Assembly (NCBI GenBank): GCA_963803975.1 | Contig: CAWDOY010000009.1 | Coordinates: forward strand, 32,001-96,000 | Reading direction: 5' to 3' | DNA: 64,000 bases | Source of the DNA: an uncultured delta proteobacterium | GTDB lineage: Bacteria; Desulfobacterota; WTBG01; CAIYCZ01 | Part shown: positions 18,277-38,045 of the stretch, piece by piece | How positions within the stretch are numbered: the first letter of the stretch is position 1 | Layout: every line of letters starts with the position of its first letter | The notes under the pieces: generated by a model | What the model was told of the DNA's origin: nothing | The model's input: only the letters and a program-made list of their open reading frames with translations | The model's database searches: none | Program-made: the position numbers and the translations under genes

Positions 18277-21138
18277 TTACCCGACCGTTGCCAGGGCCTC
18301 AAGCGGCAGGCGCTCAACCGCAAGCACCTTGTGAAATTTTCCATGTCCGATGCGGGCGATCTCCCGGGCAAGCTGCTCGCCCTGGCTTTCTCCCTGGCTG
18401 ATAAAGATGACTGAGATCTTAATGTCCTTGCGGCTGGTTTTCCCTGCTTCGGTGAGCGCGTGCTGGGTGCCGATGAGTTCTTTCCGCTCCATGCTTATCT
18501 CGCGCGAGTAGGAGACCACGCGCCGGGTGTCGCGGCTTGCGTCCTGTTCTTCGATGAGCGCTGCGTTGGGCTGGCCGTCGGTTATGAGCACGATGTACTT
18601 GGGGTTGCTGTTTTTTTCTTTGAGCAGTATGCGCCGCGCGCAGATGAGGCCGTTGCCGATGTTGGTGTACTGCTCGGCCTTCATGGTCATGGCGGCTTCA
18701 AGGATGGGCTGCATCTTGTCGGTGAGCGGCACCACCACCTGCCCCAGGTTGGAGAATGATACAATGCCCACCCGGTCCTGCTTTGCCAGGGCCGCCTTTG
18801 CCAGTTCCGCGATCGCCATCTTGGCATAGCGCAGCTTGGCATGGTCTTTCATCGATGCTGAGACATCAACGCAGATGGCGACATCAAGCTGCTGCGAGGG
18901 CCTCTTCTCAAACGAGCGCAGGTCCGAGCGGTTGATATCATCAATCGCTTTTCCCTTTCTCATGAGCCGGCGCAGGCTGTGGCGGACCGAGATGTGGCGG
19001 AACACGTCGCCGGTGCGAAAGCGCCGCACATCGCTTTTGTCTATCTCCATTTCCGGCTTGAATGCGCGCCGCGCAAGAGACTGGCTCTGCTGGCGCTTCA
19101 CCAGCTTCTCCAGGAGTTTGCCCAGGGCAAGGCTTGAAAGGGTAAAGCGCTTGCCCCCCTCCCCGAGCGCTACCATCCCCTTCTTTTCCAGGTCGTGGAT
19201 GAGAATTTTCAGCTTCTCGTAATCAATCTTCTGCTGGGAAACTTCCAGCCCCTTTTTTTCGCTCAGGGTGTAGTGCACGTAGAGGTCTTCCAGAGAGGAA
19301 GTCTGGGAGCGGCCCTGGTGCTGAAAGTCCATGAGCTCGGCCAGCATCTCCCCGAGAGCCTTTGGCGGAATGGAAATCTTTTCTCCTTTTGCCCCCGGCG
19401 GCTTGGGCATCCCCTTGGCATTGTTCAGGTATTTGGCAAGCTCTTCAGGGGTTATCTCCCCCGTGGCCAGCATCTCCTCAAGGCTCTTTTTCAAGTGCTT
19501 CTGCCCTTCATCGCTCATCGTCATATCCGAGGAGCCGGAGAGATCAAGGTAGCCCCGGTCTTCAAGCTCTTTCAGCAGGTCCTGGTAGTTTTGCTGCATG
19601 TTATTGAGCAGGCCCTTCTCCATGGCATCTTTTAACGCCTGCTGCACCAGCGGGTGGTTCATCGCTTCCTCGGCAAACCCCGGATTATCAAGCGGCAGCC
19701 CCTCTCCGGGACCAAGCTGGCGCACAGCCGCATCAGTAAGCCCCATGAGGGCCCGGGCAATCTCCTCGGGCGTGAGCGGCCGTGCAGGACCCGGCGCGCG
19801 CTCCTGTGCTTCGGGGAACAGCGGGATGCTATACACCACCCGGCTGATAATGCTTTTCAGGATTTCTGCAATGGAAGCGTCTTCACCGGGGCTCGCCTGA
19901 TTGCGATGGCAGAGCGCAATACAGGCAGCCTCGGCAAGCGTCCTGCGGGTAACCCGCCCGCGCAGCAGCCCGTAGGCCTGGGCAATGTCCCGGGTGGCAA
20001 GGGTGCCGCGCACCCCGCCCGGCCGGGCAATGAGCGGATGGTGCCTGGTTGCCCCGGCTATGGCGCTTGCAAGGCGGTCAACCTCGTCAGGCGACAATTC
20101 CTCGCGCATCCGCTTCTGCAGCAGCTCATCAAGCACTTTTTCCATTTCACCGGACAAACCCGGCACGGTATGTTCACCGCCTGACAGCTCGCACACATCC
20201 AGCGGCGCCATGCGCAGACTACCCTGCTCCTGCGGTTCCGGAAATTTGTATATCTCTCCGTAGAGAGCTTTTTTATCCAGAAATGTTTTTGCCAGCGAAG
20301 GCAGGTCGAGCGCATGGGGCAATGAATACAGCACCAGCACCGTGCTGCCTTTCGCTTTCGCAAACCCTTCGTAGCGGCACAGGTCAAGGAGCCTGCTTAC
20401 CGTGTAGCAGGCCTCGTTGATGGCGTTTTCCCGTTCAAGGTTCAAGTCAAGCCCGGTGGAAAATACCGAGTTCATAAGGCGTGCGGCCTTTTTCCCCAGG
20501 GCCTGCTCGCTGCCGCCTGGATGAGCCTGTTCGGCAAAGAGGTTGTCAGCGGAGGCAAGAAGCTCGCTGTAGGTTTTCTGGTACTGGGAGGAAATGAGAT
20601 GCGGCCGCGCTGCCAGGGGCACGAGCGGAAGCCGTGAGCGATAGCAGTAGGCTGCAAGCTCCGGCAGAAAATCCCCCGGCTGAAAAATGCTTTCTTCATG
20701 GCAGGCCTGGCCCTCGCACAGGCCGACCCGGGCAGGTATCTTCAGGGCATAGAGCAGGGAAAAGCCGTAGTGCAGCGCTGCCCCTGCAGCAGCCGCAGAA
20801 GCATCGATGGCAATGGCTGCAGGCTGCAGCTTCCGTATGAACGGGGCAAGGTATGCCTTTACATTGATGCCGCGGCAGGGATAGGGGATAAAGGTCAGGT
20901 CTCTGACGGTTGCGGTGCGGGAAACATGTTCCGCGTAGGTGCCCTCGAGCCACTGTGATACATAGGAAGCAAGGTCCGGGCTCAGGCGGCGCAGCAGATA
21001 AAGCGGTGCGGCTGCGGTTTCCTCGGGCAGCGGCCCTTTCAGCTTCTTAAGCAGTGCCTGCTCTACATCAGGCAGCCGCGTGCCCCGCCACAGGGCAAGG
21101 CGCAGATCTTCTCTGGTTATGTCAATGGGGGAAACCAT
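18277..21138 (-). CDS. Large VWA-domain protein (ChlD/CoxE-like C-terminus, AAA-lid-like middle, unassigned N-terminus)
   Basis: MIDAS DVSASM, YTNIG and LITDGQPN; DISxxxSLR-like HISVRHSLRR before the VWA domain; lid-like PGGVRGTLATRDIAQAYG. Confidence 0.85.
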   Translation of the reverse strand: MVSPIDITREDLRLALWRGTRLPDVEQALLKKLKGPLPEETAAAPLYLLRRLSPDLASYVSQWLEGTYAEHVSRTATVRDLTFIPYPCRGINVKAYLAPFIRKLQPAAIAIDASAAAAGAALHYGFSLLYALKIPARVGLCEGQACHEESIFQPGDFLPELAAYCYRSRLPLVPLAARPHLISSQYQKTYSELLASADNLFAEQAHPGGSEQALGKKAARLMNSVFSTGLDLNLERENAINEACYTVSRLLDLCRYEGFAKAKGSTVLVLYSLPHALDLPSLAKTFLDKKALYGEIYKFPEPQEQGSLRMAPLDVCELSGGEHTVPGLSGEMEKVLDELLQKRMREELSPDEVDRLASAIAGATRHHPLIARPGGVRGTLATRDIAQAYGLLRGRVTRRTLAEAACIALCHRNQASPGEDASIAEILKSIISRVVYSIPLFPEAQERAPGPARPLTPEEIARALMGLTDAAVRQLGPGEGLPLDNPGFAEEAMNHPLVQQALKDAMEKGLLNNMQQNYQDLLKELEDRGYLDLSGSSDMTMSDEGQKHLKKSLEEMLATGEITPEELAKYLNNAKGMPKPPGAKGEKISIPPKALGEMLAELMDFQHQGRSQTSSLEDLYVHYTLSEKKGLEVSQQKIDYEKLKILIHDLEKKGMVALGEGGKRFTLSSLALGKLLEKLVKRQQSQSLARRAFKPEMEIDKSDVRRFRTGDVFRHISVRHSLRRLMRKGKAIDDINRSDLRSFEKRPSQQLDVAICVDVSASMKDHAKLRYAKMAIAELAKAALAKQDRVGIVSFSNLGQVVVPLTDKMQPILEAAMTMKAEQYTNIGNGLICARRILLKEKNSNPKYIVLITDGQPNAALIEEQDASRDTRRVVSYSREISMERKELIGTQHALTEAGKTSRKDIKISVIFISQGESQGEQLAREIARIGHGKFHKVLAVERLPLEALATVG

Positions 21139-21150
21139 GGGGAACAGGTT

Positions 21151-21307
21151 CTATCAGTTTGTTGAAAAGCTGTTTTTCCCGGGCTGGTCAAAAACATTCA
21201 GATGCAAGGCGCGCGACATCACGAGGAATGAGGCGTACTTCGCAGTACGCTGCAATGACGAGGGATAAGCGCAACGCAGCAGATGGGTGTTTTTCAACAG
21301 CCTGCTA
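21151..21307. mobile_element. MITE-like element of about 155 bp
   Basis: Imperfect terminal inverted repeats TATCAGTTTGTTGAAAAG / TTTTTCAACAGCCTGCTA; non-coding; overlaps the stop codon of the AAA gene. Confidence 0.65.
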
Positions 21308-22327
21308 TTTCTTTTTTGCCTGCTCGATTACTTTTTCGATAAGCAGGTCCTGCTTGTCGTAGTAGCGGCTTTCCGCGCTCACCACCAGCCGGCCCTGAAG
21401 CACCCTGCGGGCGGCCTTTTCCACGTGCTCGGCTTTCACCTGTTTGACATTTTTCAGCCGGGCCAGGGACTGGGCCTGCTCGTAGATGGAAAGGCTGGTG
21501 CGCACGCTGGGCAGCCGTTCAATTTCCTCGGGCATGGCGCGGGCCGCGTTGGAGATGGCGACCGCGCGGTGCAGCATGTCCTCGGGGACGCTGACCGCAT
21601 CGAGTGTTTTCCCGTACTGTTTCAGGATGGTTACCTCGTCTTCAAAATCCGGGTAGCTGATCCTGATCTCTTCAAACCGGTCAGAGAGGGTTTCGCTCAC
21701 CCGCTCAACGCCGGCAAATTCCTCGGGGTTCTCGGTTGCCACCACCAGCGTGTCAACCTGCGAGGTGAAGTCAAAACCGGCAATGGTGGTGATGCCCTCT
21801 TCCAGAACCTGCACCAGGGTGTTCTGGGTGCGCTGCGGCACGCGGTTGAGCTCATCAATAAACAGGATTTTCCGGTGCGCCTTCTGGATTTTTCCCGGCG
21901 TGAACGCCCGCGGGTCCTGGATGCCCAGGCGCATGGCCATGACCGGGTCAAGGTCGCCCATCAGGTCCTCAGGCATCATTTCGGGCGAGCCCTGGATGCG
22001 CACAAAGCGCTTGCTGCCGGGGGTCTTAACTTTTTTATGGCTCTTTTTGCCGCGGCAGTCCGGGCAGGACGGGTCCTCGGGATAGCAGTTGTAGCGGCAG
22101 TCGGCAATGGTTTCCATGGCCGGAAGAAGGGCGGATATTATCCGCGCCAGGGTGGTCTTGCCGGTGCCCGGCGGCCCCTCGAGCAGCAGGTGCCGGCCTG
22201 CCACCAGCACGGCAAGGATTGCCTCGCGCGTCTGCTCATCACAATAAAACCCTTCAAGCGGATTCTCTTTCTTTGCTACCCGGCCCAGTATGGCCTGCCT
22301 CAATTCCTCGCGCAGTGATTTAGCCAT
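21305..22327 (-). CDS. MoxR/ChlI-like AAA+ ATPase
   Basis: Walker A GPPGTGKT, Walker B ILFIDELNR, ATENP, LSDRF; Cys cluster CRYNC...CPDC. Confidence 0.92.
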   Translation of the reverse strand: MAKSLREELRQAILGRVAKKENPLEGFYCDEQTREAILAVLVAGRHLLLEGPPGTGKTTLARIISALLPAMETIADCRYNCYPEDPSCPDCRGKKSHKKVKTPGSKRFVRIQGSPEMMPEDLMGDLDPVMAMRLGIQDPRAFTPGKIQKAHRKILFIDELNRVPQRTQNTLVQVLEEGITTIAGFDFTSQVDTLVVATENPEEFAGVERVSETLSDRFEEIRISYPDFEDEVTILKQYGKTLDAVSVPEDMLHRAVAISNAARAMPEEIERLPSVRTSLSIYEQAQSLARLKNVKQVKAEHVEKAARRVLQGRLVVSAESRYYDKQDLLIEKVIEQAKKK

Positions 22328-22426: not shown

Positions 22427-22642
22427 TTAGAAACATCCCAGCTGGCAGTTCTGCACCTTGAGTCCGGCCACATCCAGAAAGGCTTTCATTTTGTTCATCT
22501 GGATATTGTTGTCCTCGGCAAACTTCTGCGACTGATAGCAGCTTATCTTGCCATCCTTGGCTAAACTTTTTAATTTGGCCTCAAGCTCCGGGGTCATCCA
22601 GTCCTCTCGTTTCGGGTTTACAAACATGTCTGCTCTGGTCAC
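22427..22642 (-). CDS. Small conserved protein ending in CQLGCF
   Basis: AGGAGG SD; GKISC...KVQNCQLGCF pattern seen in small proteins of anaerobes; function not established. Confidence 0.75.
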   Translation of the reverse strand: MTRADMFVNPKREDWMTPELEAKLKSLAKDGKISCYQSQKFAEDNNIQMNKMKAFLDVAGLKVQNCQLGCF

Positions 22643-22784: not shown

Positions 22785-23000
22785 TTACCGGGCAGGCAAT
22801 TTCCGCCCGCTGGAGCTCTTCTTCTCTTTGGCCTCACATGCAAAGCGAGAACATGTCGAAAGCCACTGAAGTTTCTGCTCAGGATTCAACGCTTTGAACT
22901 CGGTGTGGCCGTCAAAAAGATTATCAGACATGGCGCGCACCAGCTCTCTGAATCTCCCTGTTTCATCAGTAACGTCTTTTTTCTTTCTGCCTGATTTCAT
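22785..23000 (-). CDS. Small protein, putative partner of the adjacent nucleotidyltransferase
   Basis: Overlaps the stop of the upstream gene; LNPEQKLQWL resembles LTPAQRLQVL in ORF 27406-27600. Confidence 0.6.
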   Translation of the reverse strand: MKSGRKKKDVTDETGRFRELVRAMSDNLFDGHTEFKALNPEQKLQWLSTCSRFACEAKEKKSSSGRKLPAR

Positions 23001-23521
23001 GACCGATTCCCCTCTTCTCGCAGGAGTTTTTCCAACGCCTGAATGTCAAAGATGTCTTTATCCCGCAAGGGTGTAATTGATCTTTTCAGTTCAAGCAGCT
23101 TCTTTTTAGACAAAAGCTTCACCGTATGTCCACTGATAGCAAGTTGCTCCGCACCACCCTTCAGCGCATTAAACGACAGTTCCTCGGTTAAAAAAATGTC
23201 AACCTGCCGGAAGGGGTTGCTGGTGTCAATAAAGGTAAAAACCAGCGCATTCTTTTCTTCGATAAAAACCCTGCGCTGTTCAGGATCAAGTAATGATTCA
23301 GCAGGAACAGGAGCCCGAGGGGTGAGTTTCAGCTTTTTCATGGCCGCGAGAAATTTTCGCAGATTGTGTGCGGTCATATCTATGGCCAGGTCAATATCCA
23401 TGGTCATGCGCTCAATGCCGTGCAGAACCAGCGCCACCCCACCGCAGATTATAAACCGCACCCCGTCTTCATCAAGTGTTGTAATGATTTCTTTGAGATG
23501 ATTTTTTTCTTGTTCAGCCAT
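22997..23521 (-). CDS. Nucleotidyltransferase-fold protein (AbiEii/DUF6036-like, toxin-antitoxin associated)
   Basis: ICGGVALVLHGIERMTMDIDL; C-terminal LLELK...RDKDIFD. Confidence 0.8.
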   Translation of the reverse strand: MAEQEKNHLKEIITTLDEDGVRFIICGGVALVLHGIERMTMDIDLAIDMTAHNLRKFLAAMKKLKLTPRAPVPAESLLDPEQRRVFIEEKNALVFTFIDTSNPFRQVDIFLTEELSFNALKGGAEQLAISGHTVKLLSKKKLLELKRSITPLRDKDIFDIQALEKLLREEGNRS

Positions 23522-23538
23522 ACCAGTACTATACCACT

Positions 23539-23956
23539 TTATGTTGAGCTTTCGTGAATCAATATTTCCGTCACGCCCTGCTTCACTATTCTGAATGCCC
23601 GCACCTCCGGCTGCTTCCTGTTTTTCAGGGAGATTATGAAATAGACCGCGTCAGGGTGAAAGGCAAGGCTGATGTCCATGCCCGAGGGGTCTGACAGGGC
23701 CTTTGGGGTGCGAGTGATAAATACCCAGCAGGCTCCCGCTCCCTTCCCCCAGTTCGGTGAATATTTCTACCTGCTCCTCAGGGGACATGAAATAGGAGTC
23801 AGGCGCGGGGTGGACGCTGGTGACGGGGATCACGCGCTCAAAAACACCCTGCTGCCCGATGAGCACCCCGCAGCATTCATTGGGAAGCTCCCGCCGGGCA
23901 TGCTCTATCATGGCGCTGAGCAAATGGGATGAAAGCGTTATTGCTGCATGTTCCAT
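23539..23956 (-). CDS. JAB/MPN+ (Mov34, M67) metallopeptidase; one indel near 23686
   Basis: PNECCGVL. Removing one base restores YHSHPKGPVRPSGMD (JAMM motif) and the tail AVYFIISLKNRKQPEVRAFRI...ESST* ending at 23539. Confidence 0.85.
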
Positions 23957-24042
23957 ATTTTCCCCCGGCAAAATAATTGACATATTTTGGGGACTGTGTT
24001 AACTTTGAAATCCTGATAAGGAAGAGAATTTTCAACACATAA

Positions 24043-24165
24043 CAGGCCTTCCGAGCTGCTTGTATACAGGCAGCCGATAAGGCTGAAGCAACCCTTCAGC
24101 CCGCCGTGTTTGCGAAGGAAGCCTGCAGGACATTGTCGAGGTGCATGTTCTGTCAGGCTTTTTTT
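24043..24165 (+). ncRNA. Moco/Wco-like riboswitch variant with intrinsic terminator (copy 1)
   Basis: CTTCCGAGC...GCCGATAAGG-stem-CCCGCCGTGTTTGCGAAGGAAG architecture; covaries with copy 2; terminator AAGCCTG...CAGGCTTTTTTT. Confidence 0.75.
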
Positions 24166-24286
24166 ATGCACGTATTGTATGTGAATTCCTTCCACATTTC
24201 AATTCTAATTGCAAGCATCAGTTTACGCATTATATATAACATAAGCGTACTGCAGATTAATATCCCAATCCACAGAGGAACCATGT

Positions 24287-24758
24287 ATGAAGGCTTTTAC
24301 GTTTAAACCGGAAAAATGCGATCTGTGCCGGAAGTGCGAGGAAGCGTGCGTTGCGGTCTGCGGCCCGGCTCAAGAAAAAGTCATCCGAATATGTCCCCCA
24401 CATACGGGTATTCCAGAGCCCGGAGGGCCCCTATATCAGGCTCTGCAGGCACTGCGAGGAACCGCCCTGTGTTGATGCCTGCATCGGGGAATCCCTGCAG
24501 CGGGGCCCGAACGGGCTGGTCATCCAGGACGAGGAGCGCTGCATCGGCTGCTTCATGTGCAACATGGTCTGCCCGCACGGCGCCATGAAAACCCTCATGA
24601 GCCAGGAAAAGGCGTTCAAGTGCACGCTTATGTGCGGCACCAAAACGCAGCCCACCTGCGTGCTTGCCTGTGACCGGGGAGCCCTGTTCTTTGAAGAGGT
24701 TTCCGCCCATAATAAAAACATCCGACGCGCCAAGCTTAAGGAGTTACCACGAAAATGA
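24287..24758 (+). CDS. 4x[4Fe-4S] ferredoxin-like subunit (DmsB/HycB type); frameshift near 24355
   Basis: CDLCRKCEEAC, CRHCEEPPCVDAC, CIGCFMCNMVCP and CTLMC..PTCVLAC across two frames. Confidence 0.88.
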
Positions 24759-26005
24759 AAACCAACGGCAGACAACACCTGATTATCGGCAATTGCATCG
24801 CGGCAGTTTCAGCTGCAGAAGTGCTGCGGAAGCAGAACCCCTCCGACACGATAACCATCATCGGTGATGAAGAGGTCCCCTCCTATTCCCGGTGCCTCAT
24901 TACCTATTATCTCGGGGACATGATAACCCGGAAGCACCTTTTGTCTCACAATGAGAAGTGGTATGCAGACCGGGACATTGACCTGCACCTCTCAACCAGG
25001 GCGCTCTCGGTCGACGCCAAAAAACATACGGTTATTGCCGAGCACAAGGGCAAAAAGAAAAAGTTCGAATATGACAAGCTGCTGGTTGCAACCGGCTCCA
25101 CCCCCATATTTCTTAAAAGCTTTCCCTATGATCCGGCCGGCATTATCGGCATGCGCAACTACCGCGATGCCGAGACCCTGAAGCGCTGGGCAAAGAAGGG
25201 AAAAAAGGCGATCATCATCGGTGCCGGGTTTGTCGGCTTGAAAACAGCCTACGGCCTTGCCAGGCAGGGCGTACAGGCAAAAGTGGTGGAGCTGCTGCCC
25301 ACCGTGCTGGGGCGCATGACCGATCTTGAGGCCAGCGCAAGGATTGTTGAGCGCCTCACCAGCCACAAGCTGATCGAGATTGAGCTCAACAACTCGGTCA
25401 CCGCCACCCGGAAGCAGGGGGACAAATACGTGGTCACCTATCAGAACGGCGCGGAAGAAGCGGCTGACTTTATCGTGGCCTCGGTCGGCGTTAAAGCCTG
25501 TGTCGAGTTTCTCGAAGGCACCGGCGCAGCATTAACGCGCGGGACCCTGCAGGTGAACGAGCGCCAGGAAACCACGGTTGCCGACATCTATGCTGCCGGT
25601 GATGTCTGTATATCTCCCCACATCATTTCCAGAGAATGGATCTATAACGCCATCTGGCCGGTTGCCGCTTCCCAGGGCCGGGTTGCCGCCTATAACATGT
25701 CAGGACAGCCGGCTGCCTATGCCGGCGATATCCCTATGAACAGCGTTGATTTTTTTGAGATGTGGATCACCGCCATCGGCAATGTCCAGGTCGAGGGTGC
25801 TGACATTGAGACGCTAAAATACATCAGCCCGCGCGTGTATCAGAAGGTGTTCATCCAGAAGGGAATCCCGATTGCCTTCATGGCGGTTGGCAATGTGGAC
25901 GGCGCCGGTCTCATCCGCGGCGCAATTGTCGCCGAGATGCCGTGGAAAGAGTTTGTAAAGAAGCCCCAGGCACGGGTGCTGCCAATAGCGGGGGAAGGAA
26001 TGTAA
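24755..26005 (+). CDS. FAD-dependent pyridine nucleotide-disulfide oxidoreductase (NirB/AOR gamma-subunit-like)
   Basis: YSRCLI, LLVATGS, IIGAGFVG, IYAAGD. Confidence 0.9.
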   Translation: MKTNGRQHLIIGNCIAAVSAAEVLRKQNPSDTITIIGDEEVPSYSRCLITYYLGDMITRKHLLSHNEKWYADRDIDLHLSTRALSVDAKKHTVIAEHKGKKKKFEYDKLLVATGSTPIFLKSFPYDPAGIIGMRNYRDAETLKRWAKKGKKAIIIGAGFVGLKTAYGLARQGVQAKVVELLPTVLGRMTDLEASARIVERLTSHKLIEIELNNSVTATRKQGDKYVVTYQNGAEEAADFIVASVGVKACVEFLEGTGAALTRGTLQVNERQETTVADIYAAGDVCISPHIISREWIYNAIWPVAASQGRVAAYNMSGQPAAYAGDIPMNSVDFFEMWITAIGNVQVEGADIETLKYISPRVYQKVFIQKGIPIAFMAVGNVDGAGLIRGAIVAEMPWKEFVKKPQARVLPIAGEGM

Positions 26006-26011
26006 ATAAAA

Positions 26012-27909: not shown

Positions 27910-29728
27910 ATGAGATATCCGTTTTGTACAAGGCTGAGTAAAAGTTTGACATGGCTGGCGTCATTGGTGATGACTGTTTGCTGGGCAGTCTCCGTAAATG
28001 CAATTTCCAATATGAAAAGAATGCAGTCTCTCATTTATTTTAATATCGTTATGGTTATGCTTTTAGTGATTTCAGGGTGTGAACCATACCCGGAGTGTGG
28101 ACCTGCTGATCTTGTAATCAAGAATGCGAAAGTTGTTACGGTTGATAAGGAAAATCCAGAAGCCGAGGCCGTCGCGTTTGTTGGAGAGTTTATTGTAGAT
28201 GTAACTTCCAACAGGAAAATTGCAAAGTACATTCAGGAAGGGAAGACGGAAGTTATTGATGCCGCAGGGAGGCTTGTCATACCCGGATTCAATGATGCTC
28301 ATGCGCATTTTTCATCCATTGACCTGGATTTCATTGACCTCAGGTATATTACCGAACCGAATATCATTACAGAGAAGGTGAGGGAAAAGGTAGCTGTATC
28401 CCAACCGGGAGAGCTGATCATGGGTGGTAACTGGGACCATGAGATGTTTCCCGATAAAAGGTGGCCAACCAAAGAGTTGATCGATCCTGTTTCTCCTGAC
28501 AACCCAGTGTTACTCTTCCGGACAGATTACCATTCGGTATTGGTTAACAGCTATGTATTAAGGAATTCGGGAATAACTAAGGATACACCCGATCCGGAGG
28601 GCGGAGAGATTCAGAGAGATAGCGTGACAGGAGAGCCTACAGGTATACTCAAGGAATCGGCAAAGGGGTTGATTAAAACCGGGGAAATACCGGTTGAAAG
28701 AACTCCTGAAGAGATTAAGCAACGCCTGATCGAAGGTTGGAAGGCAGCATTTAGAATGGCTGCTGAACTTGGTGTGACAAGTATTCAGCATCCGGGAGAG
28801 GGAGATGCTGAATTTTACCAGGAATGGTTTGACCAGGGAATGCTCACTTGCCGGATGGATGTTGCCGGTCGGCTTACTAACGATACAGACGCCCTGGAAA
28901 AATACGATGAGTTGAGAGAGAAATATCCACCCGAAGGAAACTGGATCCGGTTTGGATACCTGAAAGGGCAAATTGATGGGACACTGGGTTCAGCTACCTT
29001 TATGCTTTATGAACCGTTCATCGGATGACCCGGATAATACGGGTTTACCTCAGATGACCTATGAAGAGCTGGAACAGAAAGTGGTGACATGCGACAGTAT
29101 GGGATTCCAGATCGGAATACATGCCATTGGCGATAAGGCCAATACCTGGATCCTGAATGCTTTTGAAAAAGCAGCCGAGGTAAACGGCTGGAAGGATAGC
29201 CGGCACCGCAGTGAACACGCTCAGATCCTTATTGAAGAAGATATTCCCAGATTTGCGCAACTGGGTGTCATCGCTTCCATGCAACCCACACACTGCATAA
29301 CAGATAAACGGTTTTGTGAAAAACGGATTGGTAAGGAGCGATCTAAGTATGCATATGCCTGGAGGAGTTTATTGGATGCAGGTGCAAAGATTGCTTTTGG
29401 AACCGATTATCCTGTTGAACCACTGGATCCAATGGAAGGATTATATGCAGCCGTTACCCGCAAAGACCGTATGGGAGAGGAAGGTGATGGCTGGTTCCCG
29501 GAGCAGAAACTGACCATGGAAGAAGCCATTGAACTCTATACCCTTGGGGCGGCATATGCCCAATTCATGGAGAACAGGAAGGGCATGATCAAAAAGGGTT
29601 ATTTGGGGGATGTTGTTATTGTAAACCAGGATCTGATGACCATCCCTGAAGAAGATATTATGAAGACAAAAGTTGATTATACCATAGTTGGAGGTAAGGT
29701 GGTTTTTAAAAGGAACGACACCGACTGA
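27910..29728 (+). CDS. YtcJ-like amidohydrolase (Amidohydro_3), probable lipoprotein; frameshift near 29020
   Basis: IPGFNDAHAH, DGTLGS, IHAIGD, RHRSEHAQ, ASMQPTH, FGTDYPV. Confidence 0.9.
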
Positions 29729-29829
29729 CTGAAGGCGCGGTCCCGGGGTCAGGGCGGCGGCGGTCCCATCGACTCTCGCAACATAATGCCCCCTTTTATT
29801 ATATAAATATGAATTAACCGCTATCGGAT

Positions 29830-32245
29830 TTATTCGTAGTCCAGACTGGTAAAAATAGCATTGGCCAACACACGGAACATATTTTTCGGATGCGCCCCGA
29901 AGGTTGGCGAGATCCCCAAAAGCGTGATATTGCCCGGCCCGCTCTCGCTGTGAATGACTACCGGTTTTCCGCGGGCTCCGCTGCTGGACCATCCCGACCA
30001 GTACCCTGATACAAAAAAATTCTCGTCATCCTTTATATACATAGCAGAATTGACGCCATTGCCGAGGCTCGAAAACCAATACGGAGAATTCAGATAGGCA
30101 TAGTCCTCTGAAGGAAGGCCGGCCGTAATGGGGTCTTTCGGTGAATTGACCACTTTGACAATACCATCGCCATCGGCCCGGTTCAGGGCAAAGTCCAACA
30201 AGGAAGCATTGTCAGCAAAGTCAACCCCCCCGGCCATGCCGATAAAGTTGCCGCCGTTTTTCAAAAAGTTAACAATATTATCGTACCCGACCTCATCAAG
30301 CTCCCACCGCCATTCCACTCGCTCGAAAATCAGCAAATCAAAATCACCCAATATGGATGGCGCGGCGTTCAACTCCGCGGAGGTGACCTCTTGATAGGTA
30401 AAACCGAGTTCTCGCAGGCTAAAAGTGAGCCCTGATTCTGTGGAAGGGTAGACGGCGATTCGCTGCGGCTCCAGCTGAACGGCACTGTCTGGAATTTTCA
30501 TGAGGGCAAAAACATCCAGCCCATATTCCAGCGCCAGGCGGTTTGCCTCCGCATGGTCAGCCCTGAAGATAAACGCGCCCACTTCCAGCGGGCTTTCAGC
30601 GCCCGCGGCACCTTCCAGACGCGACACATCGGTTCCGGCTGCAATCAGGTCATTTGCAGCCCTGATCGCCTCGTTGCAGTTCGGCAAATACGCGTACCCG
30701 GTGCCGGACCAGCCCTGCACGGAACCGCGCAGAGGCCACTGCTTTCGCAGGCGGGCTGTTTTGACAGTGAGCGGCTTCTCAGCCACGGCCAGCCGTACCC
30801 CCCAGAGCAGCGGGTGGGACCATGCGGACGGTTTGGCGTAGAATGACAGTCCCTCAATAGCGGAAAGGTCCACGCCGCTGCTGAGAATCGTGTTTGCCAG
30901 TCCCCGCTTGGGCTGGTTCATCCATACCACGCAGGTTCCCTTGGGATAAGTAATATTATCGAGGGTAAAGGCATGCAGTGCTTTTTCCACCTGAATATCG
31001 TTGGCCAGCAAAAAGTCGATCAGCATATGAGGCTGATGTTCACTTTGCTGTAAGGGCGGCGACAGGGCAATCACATATGCTTCCGGAAACTCCTGAATCA
31101 TCAGGTCTTCAAATTGATCGTATGGTATCTGGTCCAGGATTTCCTGGCTGACAGGCTGCTGGGGAAGATCGAGAAATCCCCGGCGGAATATTTCGATCTG
31201 GTCCATAACCATTTCCTGCTTGTTTTTGACCGCGAACTTCAGAGCCCCCATAACCGCCGTCACCAGGACCTCTACATCGAGTTCGTCCCCCCCCATCCGC
31301 CCCCAGTAGGGGGGCTTCCAGTGTGTGGCCGTACGATCCGTGGTACATGGCATACTGGGGGCCGTAGATCGGCGGCCAATCATCCCACGCACCAGCCATG
31401 TCGAGAATAGGAATCATAGAGTCCATGCCCAGTTGTTCCTTCACCTCTGCTTTCATGGCCAGGGCCTGAGCAAGGGCCCATCCCAGGTAAAGGTCATACT
31501 CGTAGTTGGGGTTGTGGGGCGGCGTGCAAGGCTCGATCAGCAGGGTGGGCATAAACCCGTGCATGTCCAGAAGCACCAGGGGATTCCAGTCGGCCAGCAC
31601 GGCGACCAGGGCTTTTGTTTCAGGCTGAGACTGGGTGATAAAATCACGGTTGAGGTTAATCCCGTACCCATTCACCCTGGTGCCGTTCACCCTGCCGTCA
31701 GGGTTTTGAATCGGGTTAATCAGCAGGATGAAGTTTTCCAGGATTTCCAGCGTTTCTGCGGACTCGTCATAGGCGAAGTGCTCGATCAGCTCCATGCAGG
31801 CATCAACACCCGGGAGTTCATTGCCGTGCGTCCCCCCATTCACAAAAAACGGGAGCTTAAAATCATCCAGGCGCTCGATTGTATCCTGGGCCCTTTCCGG
31901 ATCATGGGTCATCAGGCGGCGAATCTGCCTGTAGTGTCCAAGCCGTCTCAGGCCGTCCGGGGAAGTGATCGTCACGAGGTATAAATCACGCCCGCCAGCA
32001 GACTGCCCCATGACCTCAACACGCACACGGAAGCTCTTTTTCTCGATCTCGCGGAGCTTGGGCCCGATTTCCGAGTAATCAATTGGATCATACGGGAGCG
32101 TTGCAGCACTTCGTGCAATTGAATTTGAATAGACACCTGAGACTGCCAGAGTGTCATTCGCTGCAAAGACGCTGGTGCATATTGTGGGGATCATTAGCAA
32201 AATAACTAAAAACAGATACATGTAAATATTATCCAACTTTTTCAT
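29830..32245 (-). CDS. Secreted M14 zinc carboxypeptidase with a C-terminal GATase-like domain; frameshift near 31290
   Basis: Signal peptide; HGNE, NPDG, NLNRD, DMHG; ORFs 32251-31109 and 31392-29830. Confidence 0.88.
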
Positions 32246-32513
32246 ACCCACACCTCCTGTTATGTGACTTTATAAAACTAAAAAACCGGAATTTATAGAG
32301 AACTTCCCTTTGGATGAAGAAGAAACGGGGTCTGGTCTTGGATTGTCAGCTATGCTGCGCTTCAACCTTTGTTATTATTTTGCTGACGGTAGTATAGTGA
32401 ATTTGCAGGGAGGTACCGGGGTCCTCTCATCCTCTCCTGCCTCGCAAGCCGCACCTTGCAGCAGGAAGATTCACCAACTAAAATTTATGCAATAATGCAA
32501 TACTAAAGGCAGC

Positions 32514-33248
32514 TTATACCTTGCCGCACACCGGGCAGTCGGGAATTTTTTTCTGCGGCAGTTCCATGAACTCCATGGCAGCGCCGTCCCAGATAAGCAT
32601 CCTTCCCATGAGATTCGTCCCCACACCGCTCAGGTATTTAATTGCTTCAAGTGCTTCGAGGCAGCCGATAACGCCGGCAGTTGCGCCGACAATGGGAAAC
32701 AGGGTCTTGGGCAGGGTGCCCGTGTGCATGCACCAGAGGCAGGGTGTTTCCGGAGGCTTGATGAAGGTGATCTGGCCCCGCATGCCGTACACGCCGGCGT
32801 GTATCATGGCAGTTTGGGTCCTGACCGCGTATTTGTTGAGTATCTGGCGGGTTTCAAAGTTATCAAGGCAGTCAACGATGAGATCAACCGTGCCGATGAC
32901 TGCCTCAGTATTCGCATCAGTTATTTCCTCAGCGACCGGCTCAACTTTTATTTCGGGATTGAGCCGTGTGAGTGTTTCCTGGGCAGAGAGCGCCTTGTTT
33001 TTGTTAATGCGGGAATCGTCGTGGAGTATCTGGCGGTTGAGGTTGGAAAGTTCCAGGGTGCCGCAGTCAGCGATGCGGATGGTGCCCACACCGGCAACAG
33101 CAAGATACATGGAGAGCGGGCTCCCCAAGCCTCCCGCACCGGCGATAAAAACTTTTGCGTTTTTTACGCGCTGCTGCGCTTCCTCTCCCCACCCGGGGAA
33201 TATCATCTGCCGCTGATAGCGGTTGCGTTCGCTCTCTGATAAGGGCAT
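32514..33248 (-). CDS. moeB: ThiF/MoeB/HesA-family E1-like adenylyltransferase
   Basis: RYQRQ, GAGGLG, SNLNRQ, DCLDNF, two CxxC motifs (CLWC, CPVC). Confidence 0.9.
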   Translation of the reverse strand: MPLSESERNRYQRQMIFPGWGEEAQQRVKNAKVFIAGAGGLGSPLSMYLAVAGVGTIRIADCGTLELSNLNRQILHDDSRINKNKALSAQETLTRLNPEIKVEPVAEEITDANTEAVIGTVDLIVDCLDNFETRQILNKYAVRTQTAMIHAGVYGMRGQITFIKPPETPCLWCMHTGTLPKTLFPIVGATAGVIGCLEALEAIKYLSGVGTNLMGRMLIWDGAAMEFMELPQKKIPDCPVCGKV

Positions 33249-33254
33249 ACGATA

Positions 33255-33358
33255 CGTTTCAAGTTTAAGGTTTAAAGCTTGAAGTTTAAAGTTTGCAGTT
33301 CAAGGTTTAAGGTTTAATTAATTGTATCTTTGAACCTGAAACATGCAACCCGAAACGT
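33255..33358. repeat. Inverted array of degenerate heptamers (GTTTAAG / CTTGAAC type)
   Basis: gtttcaagtttaaggtttaaagcttgaagtttaaagtttgcagttcaaggtttaaggttta facing ctttgaacctgaaacatgcaacccgaaac. Confidence 0.75.
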
Positions 33359-33671
33359 TAACCGTTCCCCCTCCAATAATCAGGCCGAACCACAACAGGT
33401 CACCATCTTTCAGCTTTGTCTTTAGCCCGTCGGGATAATCCAGCACCCACTGAATACGGCTTTTATTCAGATAGAGGTTGGGGGTCTTGTAGGGCTTGCC
33501 GTCAAGGATGCCCTCTGCGTAAACATGCTGGCCAAATTTAGCGCCATATTTTTTTATGACCTCTTCAATAAAGTCCTCTACCGTTGTTCCTGCCGTGATG
33601 GTAAAGGTCTCCTGTTCCTTATTGGTAATGCTCAGCACAGTGGTAAAATATTTACAGGTTACGGCGGGCAT
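33318..33671 (-). CDS. MoaD/ThiS ubiquitin-like sulfur carrier
   Basis: Beta-grasp pattern, GLKTKLKDGD...IIGGG; directly upstream of the E1 gene. Confidence 0.8.
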   Translation of the reverse strand: MPAVTCKYFTTVLSITNKEQETFTITAGTTVEDFIEEVIKKYGAKFGQHVYAEGILDGKPYKTPNLYLNKSRIQWVLDYPDGLKTKLKDGDLLWFGLIIGGGTVNVSGCMFQVQRYN

Positions 33672-33911
33672 TGTTTCTACCTCCCAGAATATAGATATAA
33701 ACGCAAGAGCGCATACTTATTATTATACACATTTTCTCTGCATGTCAATTGGCATGTAAGCAGAATGAGCGGTTACGGGAGCATCTCTGCCGGCCATTGA
33801 CACACATGCGGAAAACGCAGCAGAATATAACAAAACAAATTATTGACACGTATTTTTAGTTATGTTACTTGTGAATTCAGTCACTATATAGTATTAATAT
33901 TATATTATAAA

Positions 33912-34048
33912 TCTGGTCTTCCGAGCCGCTCACGCATAAGTAGGCGGCCGAAAAGGCTGAGGACAAAAACTTCAGCCCGCCGTGTTTGCGAAGGAAGCCT
34001 GAAGAGTACAGCTGCATTGTGCAGCTTACTTTTCAGGCTTTTTCTTTT
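33912..34048 (+). ncRNA. Moco/Wco-like riboswitch variant with intrinsic terminator (copy 2)
   Basis: Shares CTTCAGCCCGCCGTGTTTGCGAAGGAAGCCTG exactly with copy 1; compensatory stem changes; terminator AAGCCTGAAGAGTA...TACTTTTCAGGCTTTTT. Confidence 0.75.
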
Positions 34049-34181
34049 GGTACTTGGGGGATATTTAAAAAGTTACATGTGAAAGGAGGTGCAGTTTTAT
34101 TGTTTTTGTGGGAAGCCTGCGGGAAGCGGGCTGCAGTAGTTAACCAACATCTGTTACAGTTTTTGAAAAGGGAGAATAATT

Positions 34182-34682
34182 ATGAGTAACGGAAAAGCCC
34201 TGGTATACAACCAGGAAAAATGTACTGGATGCAGAAGCTGCGTCGTCGGCTGTTCTCTCTATCATGATGGCGAGTGCGGGAAAGTGGTTTCCCGGGTTGC
34301 CGTCGTGAGGAACGAGAGATTCGGAGAATCCTTTGTCGTCGGCTGCGACATGTGCACTGACGCGCCCTGCGCAGCAGTGTGCCCAACCGGCGCATGCGCC
34401 ATGGACACGGTCGCAGGCATCACCAAAATAAATGCCGATAAGTGCATCGGCTGCAAGGAATGCGCAATGGCCTGCCCCTTTGGTGTAATCAATATGCACT
34501 ATAAAACCGGAAAGGCTTTCAAGTGTGACCTCTGTGAAGGCCGTGATGCCGGTCCCGTTTGTGCTGACTGGTGCCCGAGCGGCGCAATAACCTATACAAG
34601 CCCCAATATTGCGTTCAAGGCCAAGCGCCGGGTAAAGCTTATGGAACGCTTAGAAGCTGCGAAAGCTGGAGAGGAGGGTTAA
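34182..34682 (+). CDS. 4x[4Fe-4S] ferredoxin-like subunit (AOR small subunit)
   Basis: CTGCRSCVVGC, CDMCTDAPCAAVCP, CIGCKECAMACP, CDLC..PVCADWCP. Confidence 0.93.
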   Translation: MSNGKALVYNQEKCTGCRSCVVGCSLYHDGECGKVVSRVAVVRNERFGESFVVGCDMCTDAPCAAVCPTGACAMDTVAGITKINADKCIGCKECAMACPFGVINMHYKTGKAFKCDLCEGRDAGPVCADWCPSGAITYTSPNIAFKAKRRVKLMERLEAAKAGEEG

Positions 34683-34686
34683 AACT

Positions 34687-36651
34687 ATGTATGGATGGGC
34701 TGGACAAAGACTACGCGTAGACCTTTCAACGGGAACAATAACCAAAGAGCCTCTCTCCTATGAGTATCGCCGCAAATGGATAGGCGGACGGGGCTTTAAC
34801 TCTGACATCATTTATAATGAAGTACCGGCGAACCTGGATCCGTTTGATCCTAAAGCGCGGGTGTGCTTTGGCGTGGGCCCGGTCAGCGGCACCGCTGCTC
34901 CTTCAACAGGACGCGTGACCGTTACCTGCAAGAGCCCGCTCACCGGCGGATTCGGTGACTCCAACATGGGCGGTCACTGGGGCGCAGAGCTGAAATATGC
35001 CGGCTATGATCAGATTGTCGTTCAGGGCCGGGCAAAACATCCGGTCTATATCTGGGTCGATGATGACAAGGTCGAGATCCGTGATGCACGCCACCTGTGG
35101 GGCAAATTCCCCCGCGAGGCAGACCAGATGATAAAAGAAGAGCTGGGCGACGAGGACATTCACATTGTGCTCATCGGGCCGGCCGGCGAAAACATGGTGC
35201 GGTTTGCCTGCACCTTTAACGATGTGTGGCGCGCTGCAGGAAGAACCGGACACGGCGGCGTCATCGGCTCCAAGAACCTGAAGGGCATTGCGGTCCGTGG
35301 TTCCGGCACCGTTAAAATTGCCAATCCCAAAGCCATGATGGATGTCTGCAACCGGCTGAGACAGACTTTTAAGCCCGACCCCATGAAGATCGGTCTCTAT
35401 GAGTTCGGCAGCCTGTGCCTCATTAACGTTGCCAACCGCGACGGCTGGTTCCCCTGGAGAAATTTTCAGGGCGGCGCACACCCGCTGGCAAACAACATGT
35501 CAGGCGAGACCCATGCCAAGACCGTGCTCAAGCACCGTGAAGGCTGCTTTGCCTGCCCGATCTGCTGCGGCCGATTCACCCACATTAAAGAAGGCAAATG
35601 GGCCGGTGAAGAGTTCGGCGGACCTGAATATGAACATGCAGTTCCGACCGGACCGCGCGTTGGCATAATTGAAGATGCCAATGATATCTGGCACAATGCC
35701 CGCTTAACCAACGACTACGGCATGGACGGTATCGAGACCGGCGGTGTAATATCAGCGGCAATGGAATGGTATGAAAAGGGCCTCATCACCACCAAAGAGA
35801 CCGGCGGACTGGAGCTTGAGTGGGGCAACGCGGAAGTCGTGGATAAGCTTATCCCCATGATTGCAACACGCAAGGGCTTCGGCGCAATCCTCGCCGAAGG
35901 CGCTGACCGGGCTTCTGACAAACTGGGACTCGGTGATAAAGGACACTATTATACCCTCACCACCCGCGGCATGACGCTGCCGGGCGATGACCCGCGCGGC
36001 CTTGGTTTCGGCTACGGGCTCTCTTTTGCAATGGGCACCCGCGGCGGCTGCGACCATCTCCGGTCACTGTGCTGCCTCGAGCTCTCCGGCGCCCTTTATC
36101 CGGGCCTCAACACCAAGATTCTCGGTGATGAGCGGCCCAATAAGCCGGTCACCACGGTAGGAAAACCCTACATGGTCTTCTATGAAGAGAACCAGAAAGC
36201 GACCACAGATTGTCTGCAGGTCTGCTGCTTCACCACCCACTGGTCATATGCGGTTCTCACGCCTGACCAGGTGGAATACCTGAATGCCGTTACCGGGCTT
36301 GACTTCACCGAGGAAGAGTTCCAGGAAATCGGCGAGCGCGTCTACAACCTGGAACGCGCCTACTGGGCACGCCAGATGTCCGGCGCCCGGGAAGACGTTG
36401 TGCCGGAGCGGTTTACCACTGAGCCGATGCCCCAGGGCGTTGACTATCAGACCAATGTCGGCGTTGTGTTCCCCTTAAGCGAAATGCTGAAAAAGTACTA
36501 CAAGTATCGTGAGTATGAGCCCGGAACAGGATTCCCCGGCGAGCGGAAGCTGAAACAGCTCGGCCTTGACTACGTGGCAAAGGATCTTGCCCCGCTGCGC
36601 AGCAAGTACCTGTCTGAGTCTGAGAAGAAAAAGAAAAAATACTACTATTAA
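34687..36651 (+). CDS. aor: Aldehyde:ferredoxin oxidoreductase family (tungsten, AOR/WOR) catalytic subunit
   Basis: KSPLTG, SNMGG, IGPAGEN, AAGRTG.G...GSKNLK, CFACPICC, GPEYE, DPRG. Confidence 0.93.
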   Translation: MYGWAGQRLRVDLSTGTITKEPLSYEYRRKWIGGRGFNSDIIYNEVPANLDPFDPKARVCFGVGPVSGTAAPSTGRVTVTCKSPLTGGFGDSNMGGHWGAELKYAGYDQIVVQGRAKHPVYIWVDDDKVEIRDARHLWGKFPREADQMIKEELGDEDIHIVLIGPAGENMVRFACTFNDVWRAAGRTGHGGVIGSKNLKGIAVRGSGTVKIANPKAMMDVCNRLRQTFKPDPMKIGLYEFGSLCLINVANRDGWFPWRNFQGGAHPLANNMSGETHAKTVLKHREGCFACPICCGRFTHIKEGKWAGEEFGGPEYEHAVPTGPRVGIIEDANDIWHNARLTNDYGMDGIETGGVISAAMEWYEKGLITTKETGGLELEWGNAEVVDKLIPMIATRKGFGAILAEGADRASDKLGLGDKGHYYTLTTRGMTLPGDDPRGLGFGYGLSFAMGTRGGCDHLRSLCCLELSGALYPGLNTKILGDERPNKPVTTVGKPYMVFYEENQKATTDCLQVCCFTTHWSYAVLTPDQVEYLNAVTGLDFTEEEFQEIGERVYNLERAYWARQMSGAREDVVPERFTTEPMPQGVDYQTNVGVVFPLSEMLKKYYKYREYEPGTGFPGERKLKQLGLDYVAKDLAPLRSKYLSESEKKKKKYYY

Positions 36652-36683
36652 TCAGCATTGAGTTGAAGGGAGGTCATGAGAAT

Positions 36684-36926
36684 ATGGCTATTATGACAAA
36701 AGCACAGGCCAAAAATTTCGCCGAGATGGATGACTTCATGCTCGAGCTTTGCGACTTTTTAAAAAGCAAGAGCGTCATCGACGCTACCACCCACCGCAGC
36801 ATCCTGCTGAAAGGCTTTTCCCGAATGGTTGACTGCCTGCAGGAAAAGAAGGTGATTAGCGCCAGGGAAGCCAAAGAGGCTATGGATAAAGGGTTTACCT
36901 CGCTGGTATACGCTTTAGCGAAATAG
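36684..36926 (+). CDS. Small hypothetical protein co-transcribed with AOR
   Basis: GGAGGT SD; 80-aa ORF with an internal two-fold repeat (LCDFLKSKSVI..KGF / MVDCLQEKKVI..KGF); followed by a terminator. Confidence 0.7.
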   Translation: MAIMTKAQAKNFAEMDDFMLELCDFLKSKSVIDATTHRSILLKGFSRMVDCLQEKKVISAREAKEAMDKGFTSLVYALAK

Positions 36927-38042: not shown

Positions 38043-38045
38043 TTA

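Follow-up and report, generated by a model that had tools for sequence, protein, structure and literature searches.

A rearranged AorABC-like tungsten oxidoreductase locus of an uncultured delta proteobacterium and a linked AAA+/VWA/cysteine-tailed protein trio as its candidate assembly machinery

Tungsten aldehyde:ferredoxin oxidoreductases (AORs) are described as the only known reducers of non-activated carboxylic acids (PMC9295118), which makes them interesting as biocatalysts, and according to a 2023 review the AOR family has no known enzyme-specific chaperone (PMC10609526). Here we analysed a 64,000-nt stretch of DNA from an uncultured delta proteobacterium (hereafter the window; contig CAWDOY010000009.1, positions 32,001-96,000), in which positions 18277-36926 hold a tungsten-type AOR gene, its putative redox partners and three consecutive genes (hereafter the trio) encoding an AAA+ protein, a large von Willebrand factor A (VWA) protein named VWA953, and a small protein ending in CQLGCF. 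The source genome (G000) comprises 4.25 Mb in 57 contigs and is 98% complete.

AorABC of Aromatoleum aromaticum is a three-subunit, NAD-linked AOR whose operon, aorABC(DE), also carries MoaD-like genes (PMC6365974; structure 8c0z). The locus likewise combines ferredoxin, tungsten and FAD subunits with a MoaD-like gene, but its tungsten subunit is closer to Pyrococcus furiosus AOR (1aor) than to AorB, it has two ferredoxins, and its AorABC-type genes are not in a single operon, being divided between two riboswitch-led operons 8 kb apart. It further adds a JAB metallopeptidase, MoeB, a peptidyl-prolyl isomerase (PPIase), the small protein small87 and the trio, none of which is named for aorABCDE in the accessible part of that description (PMC6365974). 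The tungsten-cofactor gene neighbourhood compiled in 2006 contains, as far as the available part of that survey goes, only MoaD, AOR, MoeB, MoaE and MoeA, together with pyridine-disulfide oxidoreductase and ferredoxin, and JAB is not listed for it in Table 1 (Iyer et al. 2006; PMC1779556).

NorQ/NorD, a MoxR-type AAA+ protein with a VWA partner that is described as serving iron insertion into nitric oxide reductase (PMC13036017), is the best studied of such pairs and was taken as a working model for the trio. Both have the AAA+ gene beside that of a partner with a VWA domain and metal ion-dependent adhesion site (MIDAS), and the VWA folds are similar (Z 20.1; 9qh8); however, the AAA+ protein of the locus is nearer to ChlI/BchI among solved chains and carries a four-cysteine (Cys4) insert, VWA953 is longer by ~690 residues at its N-terminus, the locus adds a third protein with a Cys tail, and the proposed client would be a tungstopterin enzyme. 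CoxD and CoxE, a MoxR-type AAA+ and a VWA protein, mature the molybdopterin active site of CO dehydrogenase, a xanthine oxidase-type enzyme with a Cu-S-Mo centre; they share the AAA+/VWA pairing with the trio, while the clients belong to different enzyme families. The class I chelatase motor subunits ChlI/ChlD (BchI/BchD) include the top solved relatives of the AAA+ protein, chelatase models of NCBIfam match both AAA+ and VWA953, and a ChlD-like layout is possible on weak signals, but the scores stay far under the cut-offs and the context is a tungsten enzyme rather than tetrapyrrole synthesis.

The sulfur-carrier genes of the locus recall JAB-processed carriers such as CysO/Mec+ and QbsE/QbsD, where genes for an E1-like enzyme and JAB accompany that of a MoaD/ThiS-like protein extended beyond its GG. 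SAMP1/HvJAMM1 is a further JAB-processed carrier or ubiquitin-like protein (PMC4443979); the context here differs in being a tungsten AOR, and cleavage is predicted. The leaders of the two redox operons resemble the P3-less "Tuco" variants of the RF01055 (Moco, molybdenum cofactor) riboswitch, which Regulski et al. proposed to sense the tungsten cofactor, in their core, in P1, P2 and P4, in the missing P3 and in their position upstream of tungsten-enzyme genes (PMC2408646). They differ in scoring below the gathering threshold and in a terminator that suggests ON control, as opposed to the OFF control found for the Escherichia coli moaA element, which has been tested (PMC2408646).

Genes were called from a listing of open reading frames (ORFs) with Pfam and NCBIfam family scans, by which all genes named in a preliminary description of this DNA were recovered at or near the places it had given them. 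Below, G numbers denote the genomes compared, C numbers their contigs, L numbers loci holding CQLGCF- or VWA953-type genes and X numbers public contig sets; the genomes comprised the order of G000 (21 genomes), a phylum sample (401 genomes) and the order of a distant genome, G412 (5 genomes). The features are as follows, R1 being a covariance model built from the P3-less riboswitch variant.

18277-21138, minus strand: VWA953, 953 aa, a long N-terminal region followed by a VWA/MIDAS domain at the C-terminus (~747-953; Pfam VWA_2 3.8e-18)
21305-22327, minus strand: ChlI/MoxR-type AAA+ protein (Pfam AAA_3 2.8e-18, Mg_chelatase 1.2e-15, also AAA_5)
22427-22642, minus strand: CQLGCF protein, 71 aa, ending in CQLGCF; no Pfam or NCBIfam family match
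22785-23521, minus strand: block of a 71-aa ORF and an AbiEii-like nucleotidyltransferase (Pfam AbiEii 1.4e-5), outside the system
23539-23983, minus strand: JAB/MPN+ metallopeptidase (Prok-JAB 2.9e-17, 63 bits), frameshifted in the assembly
24037-24165, plus strand: P3-less riboswitch (aptamer 24037-24136) and terminator (RF01055 28.8 bits, E 2.7e-5; R1 85.6 bits)
24287-24758, plus strand: FdA, poly-[4Fe-4S] ferredoxin (NCBIfam Fe-S subunit matches), frameshifted in the assembly
24755-26005, plus strand: FAD/NAD(P) flavoprotein, AorC-like (Pyr_redox_2 8e-51)
26166-27104, plus strand: PPIase, SurA_N-like and parvulin (Pfam SurA_N_3 and Rotamase_2, each ~1e-13)
27108-32400, mixed strands: inserted, unrelated hydrolase/peptidase block with a split amidohydrolase (27910-29728, plus) and a split ThuA-like/M14 peptidase (29830-32251, minus), by Pfam; outside the system
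32514-33248, minus strand: MoeB/ThiF-type E1-like adenylyltransferase (ThiF 3.3e-70; NCBIfam MoeB models 8e-71)
33318-33671, minus strand: MoaD-like sulfur carrier/ubiquitin-like protein, ...GGG plus a 15-aa tail (TIGR01687 1.5e-10, below cut-off)
33907-34049, plus strand: second P3-less riboswitch (aptamer 33907-34012) and overlapping terminator (RF01055 31.1 bits, E 6.3e-6; R1 82.3 bits)
34182-34682, plus strand: FdB, poly-[4Fe-4S] ferredoxin, AorA-like (9mqx_E 9e-33, 8c0z_C 2.6e-30)
34687-36651, plus strand: AOR, tungsten-type aldehyde:ferredoxin oxidoreductase catalytic subunit (AFOR_N 8e-78, AFOR_C 7e-106)
36663-36926, plus strand: small87, 87-aa helical protein; at E<=0.01 neither Pfam nor NCBIfam gives a family

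Gene order and co-occurrence give good support to a link between the trio and one AOR clade. A search of genomes for proteins with the CQLGCF motif yielded 80 loci, in 17 of which the genes for CQLGCF, AAA+ and VWA953 are consecutive, and the AAA+ gene lies beside that of its VWA partner in all 17 loci that hold both. Within the order, VWA953 with its N-terminal part was found in 19 of the 21 genomes, G002 having only a short paralogue and G010 none, and the AOR clade (at least 76% identity) in 17, being below threshold in G002, G005, G007 and G010. Both G002 and G010 lack VWA953 and AOR, and they also lack the PPIase, the flavoprotein and strong R1 matches. In the phylum sample, where just the best two or three candidates per genome were scored (three for AOR), nine of the 401 genomes had full-length VWA953, and these nine were also the ones with the AOR clade (E<=1e-180), with no discordant genome, and the complete trio was confined to this identical set. 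G374, from another family, has both VWA953 and the AOR clade, and its sibling G350 neither. The distant lineage of G412 (the genome of L048) again holds the trio (AAA+ 60%, VWA 31% identical) and an AOR that is 65% identical, compared with 39% for the next paralogue, located in an FdB-AOR-MoaD-like cluster on another contig than the trio; in its order VWA953 occurs in four and AOR in all five of the genomes, the two sets being on different contigs. The preliminary description had called for neighbourhood and phylogenetic profiling of its proposed chaperone set, and by both approaches AAA+, VWA and CQLGCF were linked to and co-occurred with the AOR clade. One further genome, G007, holds the entire cluster, with fragmented genes for AOR, FdB, AAA+ and VWA953 next to whole flavoprotein and PPIase genes; this could be joint decay or assembly error, VWA953 being split also in other few-contig relatives (G006, G003), and G007 was not used as evidence.

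The comparison also supports the earlier claim that the stretch is one locus broken by insertions. Three relatives (G009:C11, G016:C24 and G006:C21) hold the same genes in one compact cluster of 12-15 kb, free of both inserted blocks. In G009:C11 and G016:C24 (~12 kb) the order is VWA<-AAA<-CQLGCF<-JAB, FdA->flavoprotein->PPIase, <-MoaD-like, riboswitch-FdB->AOR->small87, the CQLGCF gene itself not being matched in G016:C24; in G006:C21 it is JAB, <-MoaD-like<-MoeB, FdA->flavoprotein->PPIase->FdB->AOR->small87, <-VWA<-AAA<-CQLGCF, with both redox operons on one strand and a riboswitch in between. G413 and G414 have JAB-CQLGCF-AAA-VWA-MoeB-MoaD-like with AOR ~9-10 kb beyond, and G001 and G003 hold the three parts of the locus on three contigs, where JAB accompanies the MoaD-like gene rather than the trio. 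The AbiEii-like block is missing between JAB and CQLGCF in relatives, and one X2 contig jumps across it (22750->23586), though its short side of 25 letters makes this a weak observation. The GC content of the inserted blocks is 0.47 and 0.49 (the latter for 27108-32400), compared with 0.55-0.60 in the flanking genes.

The enzyme itself looks AorABC-like, with ferredoxin, tungsten and FAD subunits, when its genes are set against solved structures. The AOR scores 261 bits to AFOR_N and 355 bits to AFOR_C, both over the Pfam cut-offs, and its match to 1aor (1e-134) ranks ahead of that to AorB (8c0z_A, 3.5e-101); orthologues within its clade are 65-98% identical and paralogues at most 40%. The top solved relative of the flavoprotein is AorC (8c0z_E, 8.4e-42), an AOR subunit, and FdB, directly upstream of AOR, matches Fe-S subunits, among them AorA (8c0z_C). 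The multi-subunit tungsten enzyme that the preliminary description had predicted is supported by the resemblance of flavoprotein, FdB and AOR to AorC, AorA and AorB or P. furiosus AOR, respectively. Orthologues of small87 (46-78% identical) lie directly 3' of AOR in the order of G000 and in G374; none was seen in G412, and the protein has no meaningful match in the PDB.

The redox operons are further tied together by their leaders. RF01055 was not matched when Rfam was run on the whole window or on a 12.7-kb stretch, whereas searches of 200-nt stretches placed the motif at both aptamers, indicating that the earlier wide negatives were a filter effect; both matches are below the Rfam gathering score (36 bits), and in both alignments the P3 positions of the model are deleted. 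An alignment of nine loci contains a strongly conserved element upstream of FdB, and among 13 distinct copies from the window and relatives, compensatory changes occur in 9 of 22 pairs and 96.8% of the cells are paired, compared with 26-55% when the partner strand was slid; the covariation score was reached by none of 500 shuffles. A core with P1, P2 and P4 is therefore backed by covariation. R1, run on the 21 genomes of the order, gave 37 matches at 55.7-92 bits and no others above 43.8 bits; those at or under this value form the low group into which the canonical P3-bearing copies of G000 fall; just two strong matches exist in G000, both within this locus. By hand comparison across the order, 20 of the 23 AOR-clade copies are preceded, at 0.7-0.9 kb, by an R1 match of at least 64 bits. 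Other strong matches in relatives lead sets of AOR, ThiS-like and ferredoxin genes, NuoE/NuoF-like genes, and a formate dehydrogenase-like molybdopterin oxidoreductase split into 186 and 817 aa, which may be a selenocysteine gene. The two riboswitch-led redox operons noted before accordingly carry elements of one class, the P3-less RF01055 type. In the minimum-energy folds of both leaders P2 and P4 are formed, and the 3' strand of P1 lies inside a long hairpin of terminator type with a U-run behind it (z ~ -5), so that a ligand-closed P1 should block termination; these computed folds suggest that both leaders are ON switches.

Several side observations concern these riboswitches. G000 also has ten canonical P3-bearing Moco riboswitches (61-79 bits) on contigs C57, C38, C37 and C48, one of which (C48:79044-79166) is just upstream of another AOR-family gene, so that P3-bearing copies, too, precede an AOR-type gene in this genome. 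Tandem P3-less aptamers (L116 3229-3310 and 3369-3451) lie upstream of the FdB-AOR operon in G015:C107. Among the R1 matches of the order, a strong one ahead of FdA was placed only in G000 and G006; at window positions 24004-24174 contigs of X1 and X18 hold ~80 other letters instead of the FdA-leader riboswitch region, and an X3 contig jumps 24001->24174, omitting this riboswitch.

Among solved structures, the top relatives of the AAA+ protein are ChlI (8osf, 8e-12), BchI (1g8p), a further chain of the chelatase group (6l8d) and a MoxR-like protein (2r44). It is 75-91% identical within the order, and the motifs GPPGTGKTT and ILFIDELN, read as Walker A and B, are kept in 12 of 12 orthologues, in which the four cysteines of its insert (C77, C81, C88 and C91) are also invariant. 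With E<=1e-30 as the limit, 72 representatives of the VWA953 family were counted, and its MIDAS residues (D758, S760, S762, T825 and D854) are invariant in 22 members. An AlphaFold2 model (mean predicted local distance difference test score, pLDDT, 83) gives the C-terminal part a VWA fold with a Z of 24.9 to 4fx5 and of 20.1 to NorD (9qh8_G), among many others. VWA953 may possibly have a ChlD-like layout with an AAA-lid element: residues 353-419 show a weak hhalign match to an AAA lid (E 0.0016, probability 16%), and Atlas look-alikes with AAA_lid_2/Mg_chelatase score 0.77-0.81, which we treat as leads only. Of TIGR02442 "putative cobaltochelatase", one half is matched by AAA+ and the other by VWA953 (3.8e-31 and 2.3e-17), far under the cut-offs, however: 108 and 63 bits, respectively, against 779 for TIGR02442, 57 against 467 for TIGR02030, and 58 (AAA+) and 27.5 bits (VWA953) against 500 for TIGR02031. 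Pfam and NCBIfam scans gave no H/CobN-type subunit among the locus genes, no genome-wide search having been aimed at one. A role in defence was also considered and rejected: PADLOC gave no match for VWA953 or CQLGCF, and for the AAA+ protein only matches to various AAA models, none above 36 bits. A full-text literature search returned no paper joining AOR and tungsten with von Willebrand or MoxR proteins.

The CQLGCF protein defines a new family of small proteins in which the C-terminal CQLGCF does not vary. It has 47 homologue clusters, none of them named, and C35 and the C-terminal motif are invariant across 37 sequences, giving three invariant cysteines (C35, C66 and C70). The AlphaFold2 model (pLDDT 74) consists of three helices and a hairpin; Foldseek gave no PDB match at E<=0.001, only generic three-helix ones, and the Atlas hits were unnamed clusters. 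Relatives with one or two domains occur widely among anaerobes, stand-alone or tandem domains (~55 aa, ...GKIxC...CQLGCF) being seen in metagenome-assembled genomes (MAGs) of Syntrophorhabdus, Syntrophus, Dehalococcoidales, Anaerolineae, Planctomycetaceae and Thermoleophilia. Their contexts were inspected at 26 chosen loci, of which 20 were scanned with Pfam, with AOR sought by tblastn: FdhD is adjacent in two (L071, L082), AOR is adjacent in one (L027) and within 3-8 kb in two (L052, L071), and a xanthine-dehydrogenase-type gene is near one (L029), which we take as no more than a hint. A second full-length CQLGCF gene, 63% identical, was seen at L020 (in the MAG of L021) on a 13-kb contig that holds neither AAA+ nor VWA953.

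The remaining accessory genes are attached to the system to different degrees. The PPIase and flavoprotein are present in 16 and 15 of the order's genomes, respectively, but outside it, in G412, G374, G413 and G414, which carry both AOR clade and trio, a search for flavoprotein orthologues at E<=1e-60 found none, and the PPIase matches reach just 26-31% identity. The PPIase accordingly goes with the order's FdA-flavoprotein operon and not with the trio. Its earlier inclusion in an AOR chaperone set holds in weaker form, as it tracks the cluster only inside the order. The protein has no N-terminal hydrophobic signal by eye, and reaches 48 bits (1.3e-12) to the NifM model with its cut-off of 168. 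A PPIase beside the trio at L048 was rejected as support, being a non-orthologous exported lipoprotein of 25% identity. A divergent second parvulin-type PPIase (27-31% identical) was seen 3-8 kb from the trio or AOR in G001, G003, G413 and G414 (L120 13399-14265, L125 12839-13456, G413:C8:468749-469651 and G414:C4:99082-99978).

The MoaD-like protein scores under the cut-offs of its models (TIGR01687, 41.4 against 49.5 bits; ThiS, 17 against 22.5 bits). The family shares ...GLI(V/I/M)GGG, which is terminal in two of ten relatives and followed by 2 to ~40 variable residues in the other eight, as it is followed by a tail in the window's own protein; such variable tails would fit trimming by the JAB peptidase. 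MoeA is on another contig (C45) of G000, and MoaE (PF02391) gave no match in G000, possibly owing to an assembly gap or frameshift, while 17 of the 21 genomes of the order, including a same-genus genome, have it. Among the locus genes, Pfam and NCBIfam scans gave no MoaA, MoaC or tungstate transporter. With MoeA elsewhere and MoaE not found, the locus is not a complete cofactor pathway, and the word "complete" that the preliminary description had applied to this maturation island has to be dropped.

Based on the above comparisons, we consider it somewhat probable that the stretch is one rearranged AorABC-like tungsten AOR locus and that the trio serves as its dedicated assembly or cofactor-insertion machine. 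More tentatively, the trio might be the first case in the AOR family of maturation machinery dedicated to one enzyme: an AAA+/VWA motor of chelatase descent would load apo-AOR with the tungsten bis-pterin cofactor or its metal, and the Cys-tailed protein would be a carrier of cofactor or sulfur. This narrower proposal is possible but doubtful. In the broader scheme of an assembly or cofactor-insertion machine, a strong terminator would form in the leaders when the ligand is missing, and cofactor would close P1 and let transcription proceed, so that apo-enzyme would be made only when the tungsten cofactor is available. JAB would trim the tail of the MoaD-like protein behind GGG, and MoeB could then adenylate the carrier, which would pass dithiolene sulfur to the pterin. 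An AAA+ hexamer would pull on VWA953 while the MIDAS face grips the client, and the pulled VWA953 could open apo-AOR or pass on metal or cofactor, in the manner of NorQ/NorD. The CQLGCF protein would act as carrier or adaptor, and the parvulin PPIase may serve the ferredoxin/flavoprotein module in the way that NifM serves NifH.

A repair function would draw on the same genes. The trio might be an activase that remodels inactivated (oxidised or inhibitor-bound) AOR, or that assembles and dismantles ferredoxin-AOR filaments, much as CbbQ/CbbO acts as a Rubisco activase, and linkage and co-occurrence support this equally with assembly. AorABC is described as forming filaments (PMC10413684), and no R1 match lies on the strand of the trio operon, so that co-induction with the apo-enzyme would not be required. 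However, the sequences do not separate repair from first assembly, and the three invariant cysteines of the CQLGCF protein suggest bound metal, sulfur or cofactor over pure mechanics, which leaves an activase an unlikely, though not far-fetched, reading. The AOR cofactor contains two pterins with a bridging Mg2+, and the trio might instead be a true chelatase-like enzyme, with an I-like AAA+ and a D-like VWA953, that inserts tungsten into the pterin or joins the two pterins with the bridging Mg2+, the Cys-tailed protein replacing an H/CobN subunit as metal or cofactor carrier. The matches of AAA+ and VWA953 to the TIGR02442 halves and BchD/ChlI models, the ChlI and BchI structures at the top of the AAA+ list and the lid signals in VWA953 point this way; every score is nevertheless far below its curated cut-off, the usual metal insertase MoeA is encoded elsewhere in G000, and the signals for a D-like architecture of VWA953 are weak, so that we hold this to be very improbable.

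A number of observations weigh against the trio as an AOR assembly machine or in favour of a trio with another client or a general role, which would share genomes with AOR only through common descent and local gene order. The trio is unlinked from AOR in G001, G003, G374, G412, G417 and G420, and on the metagenome contig L133 it sits amid housekeeping genes. In a metagenome scan with the VWA953 family, five of 80 loci held full-length relatives, the remainder being generic VWA domains, and no AOR was found in the flanks of these five, of which only L133 has both 10-kb flanks and the others are short contigs. G418, a genome of no stated completeness, has an AOR (87% identical to that of G412), and VWA953 and AAA+ were not found there; conversely, G005 (85% complete) has fragments of the trio and no detected AOR. 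Stand-alone CQLGCF domains are widespread in varied contexts, and shorter VWA953-like proteins of ~500 aa occur in G002, G009, G014 and G015. The genomes compared are kin and therefore represent few independent events (the losses in G002 and G010, the difference between G374 and G350, and the lineage of G412), and the phylum-wide concordance was drawn from the few top candidates per genome. AOR genes are common in G000 (~29 AFOR_C matches genome-wide), so that closeness to some AOR is not rare. For the ~690 N-terminal residues of VWA953, a PDB sequence search, and Foldseek/VIA on the whole model, returned VWA-domain matches only, and ON control by the leaders is read from computed folds. Against another client stand the absence of discordance among the 401 phylum genomes, the joint absence of trio and AOR in G002 and G010, a linkage that survives several gene orders and the renewed presence of both in the separate lineage of G412, and we rate it as improbable, on a par with or slightly below an activase. 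Assembly or cofactor insertion for this AOR clade is thus the function that we favour for the trio.

Other features of the stretch concern the assembly and the public contigs that cover it. An extra base at 23690 breaks the JAB frame after HSHPKGP, and is missing in every covering public contig (X1, X3 and X18); the gene is intact in the same-genus G020, and the HSHP...PSGMD motif is in frame there and in the public contigs. In FdA, an extra base in the A-run 24370-24374 shifts the frame, all covering public contigs (X1, X2 and X18) having one base fewer, and orthologues in relatives are intact at 156-161 aa. We treated both frameshifts as assembly errors or private variants. The amidohydrolase and ThuA-like/M14 genes are each present as two overlapping ORFs, and public contigs differ there by indels at 28997-29023 and 31286/31299. 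At window positions 8635-14354 and 6853-7866, an RHS/YD-repeat gene in at least five ORF pieces adjoins an IS200-like transposase, in keeping with the frequent indel-type breaks of this assembly. A small repeated element lies at 21139-21304, between the stop of the AAA+ gene and the start of VWA953: contigs of X1, X2 and X18 omit 21182->21304 (121 bases), summed depth over 20604-21905 is 10-30x that of the flanks, and many loose ends fall at 21165-21314. Contigs from the RNA libraries X17 and X18 span a large part of the locus; as DNA carry-over is possible, they hint only weakly at expression.

Downstream of the AOR operon (37141-41340), the window encodes a BatC-like TPR protein, a 23S-rRNA-IVP/Avd-like four-helix-bundle protein, BatD and a TPR/SH3 protein, with no MoxR, DUF58 or BatA/B genes near this stretch; the AOR-BatC-BatD order recurs in G019. 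Descent of the locus from a Bat operon was rejected, as the size of VWA953 is unlike that of BatA/B and Bat genes adjoin AOR only in family f1. A cobalamin riboswitch (42441-42631, 113 bits) lies further downstream, ahead of a radical-SAM ORF.

The locus offers a short list of candidate AOR helpers that are tied to one AOR clade by gene order and by shared presence and absence, with the redox operons tied to it further by a common riboswitch. Such a list makes cofactor insertion into AORs approachable by co-expression, and the two riboswitches, judged by their predicted folds, would likely represent a case in which a cofactor induces (ON control) the enzyme that uses it.

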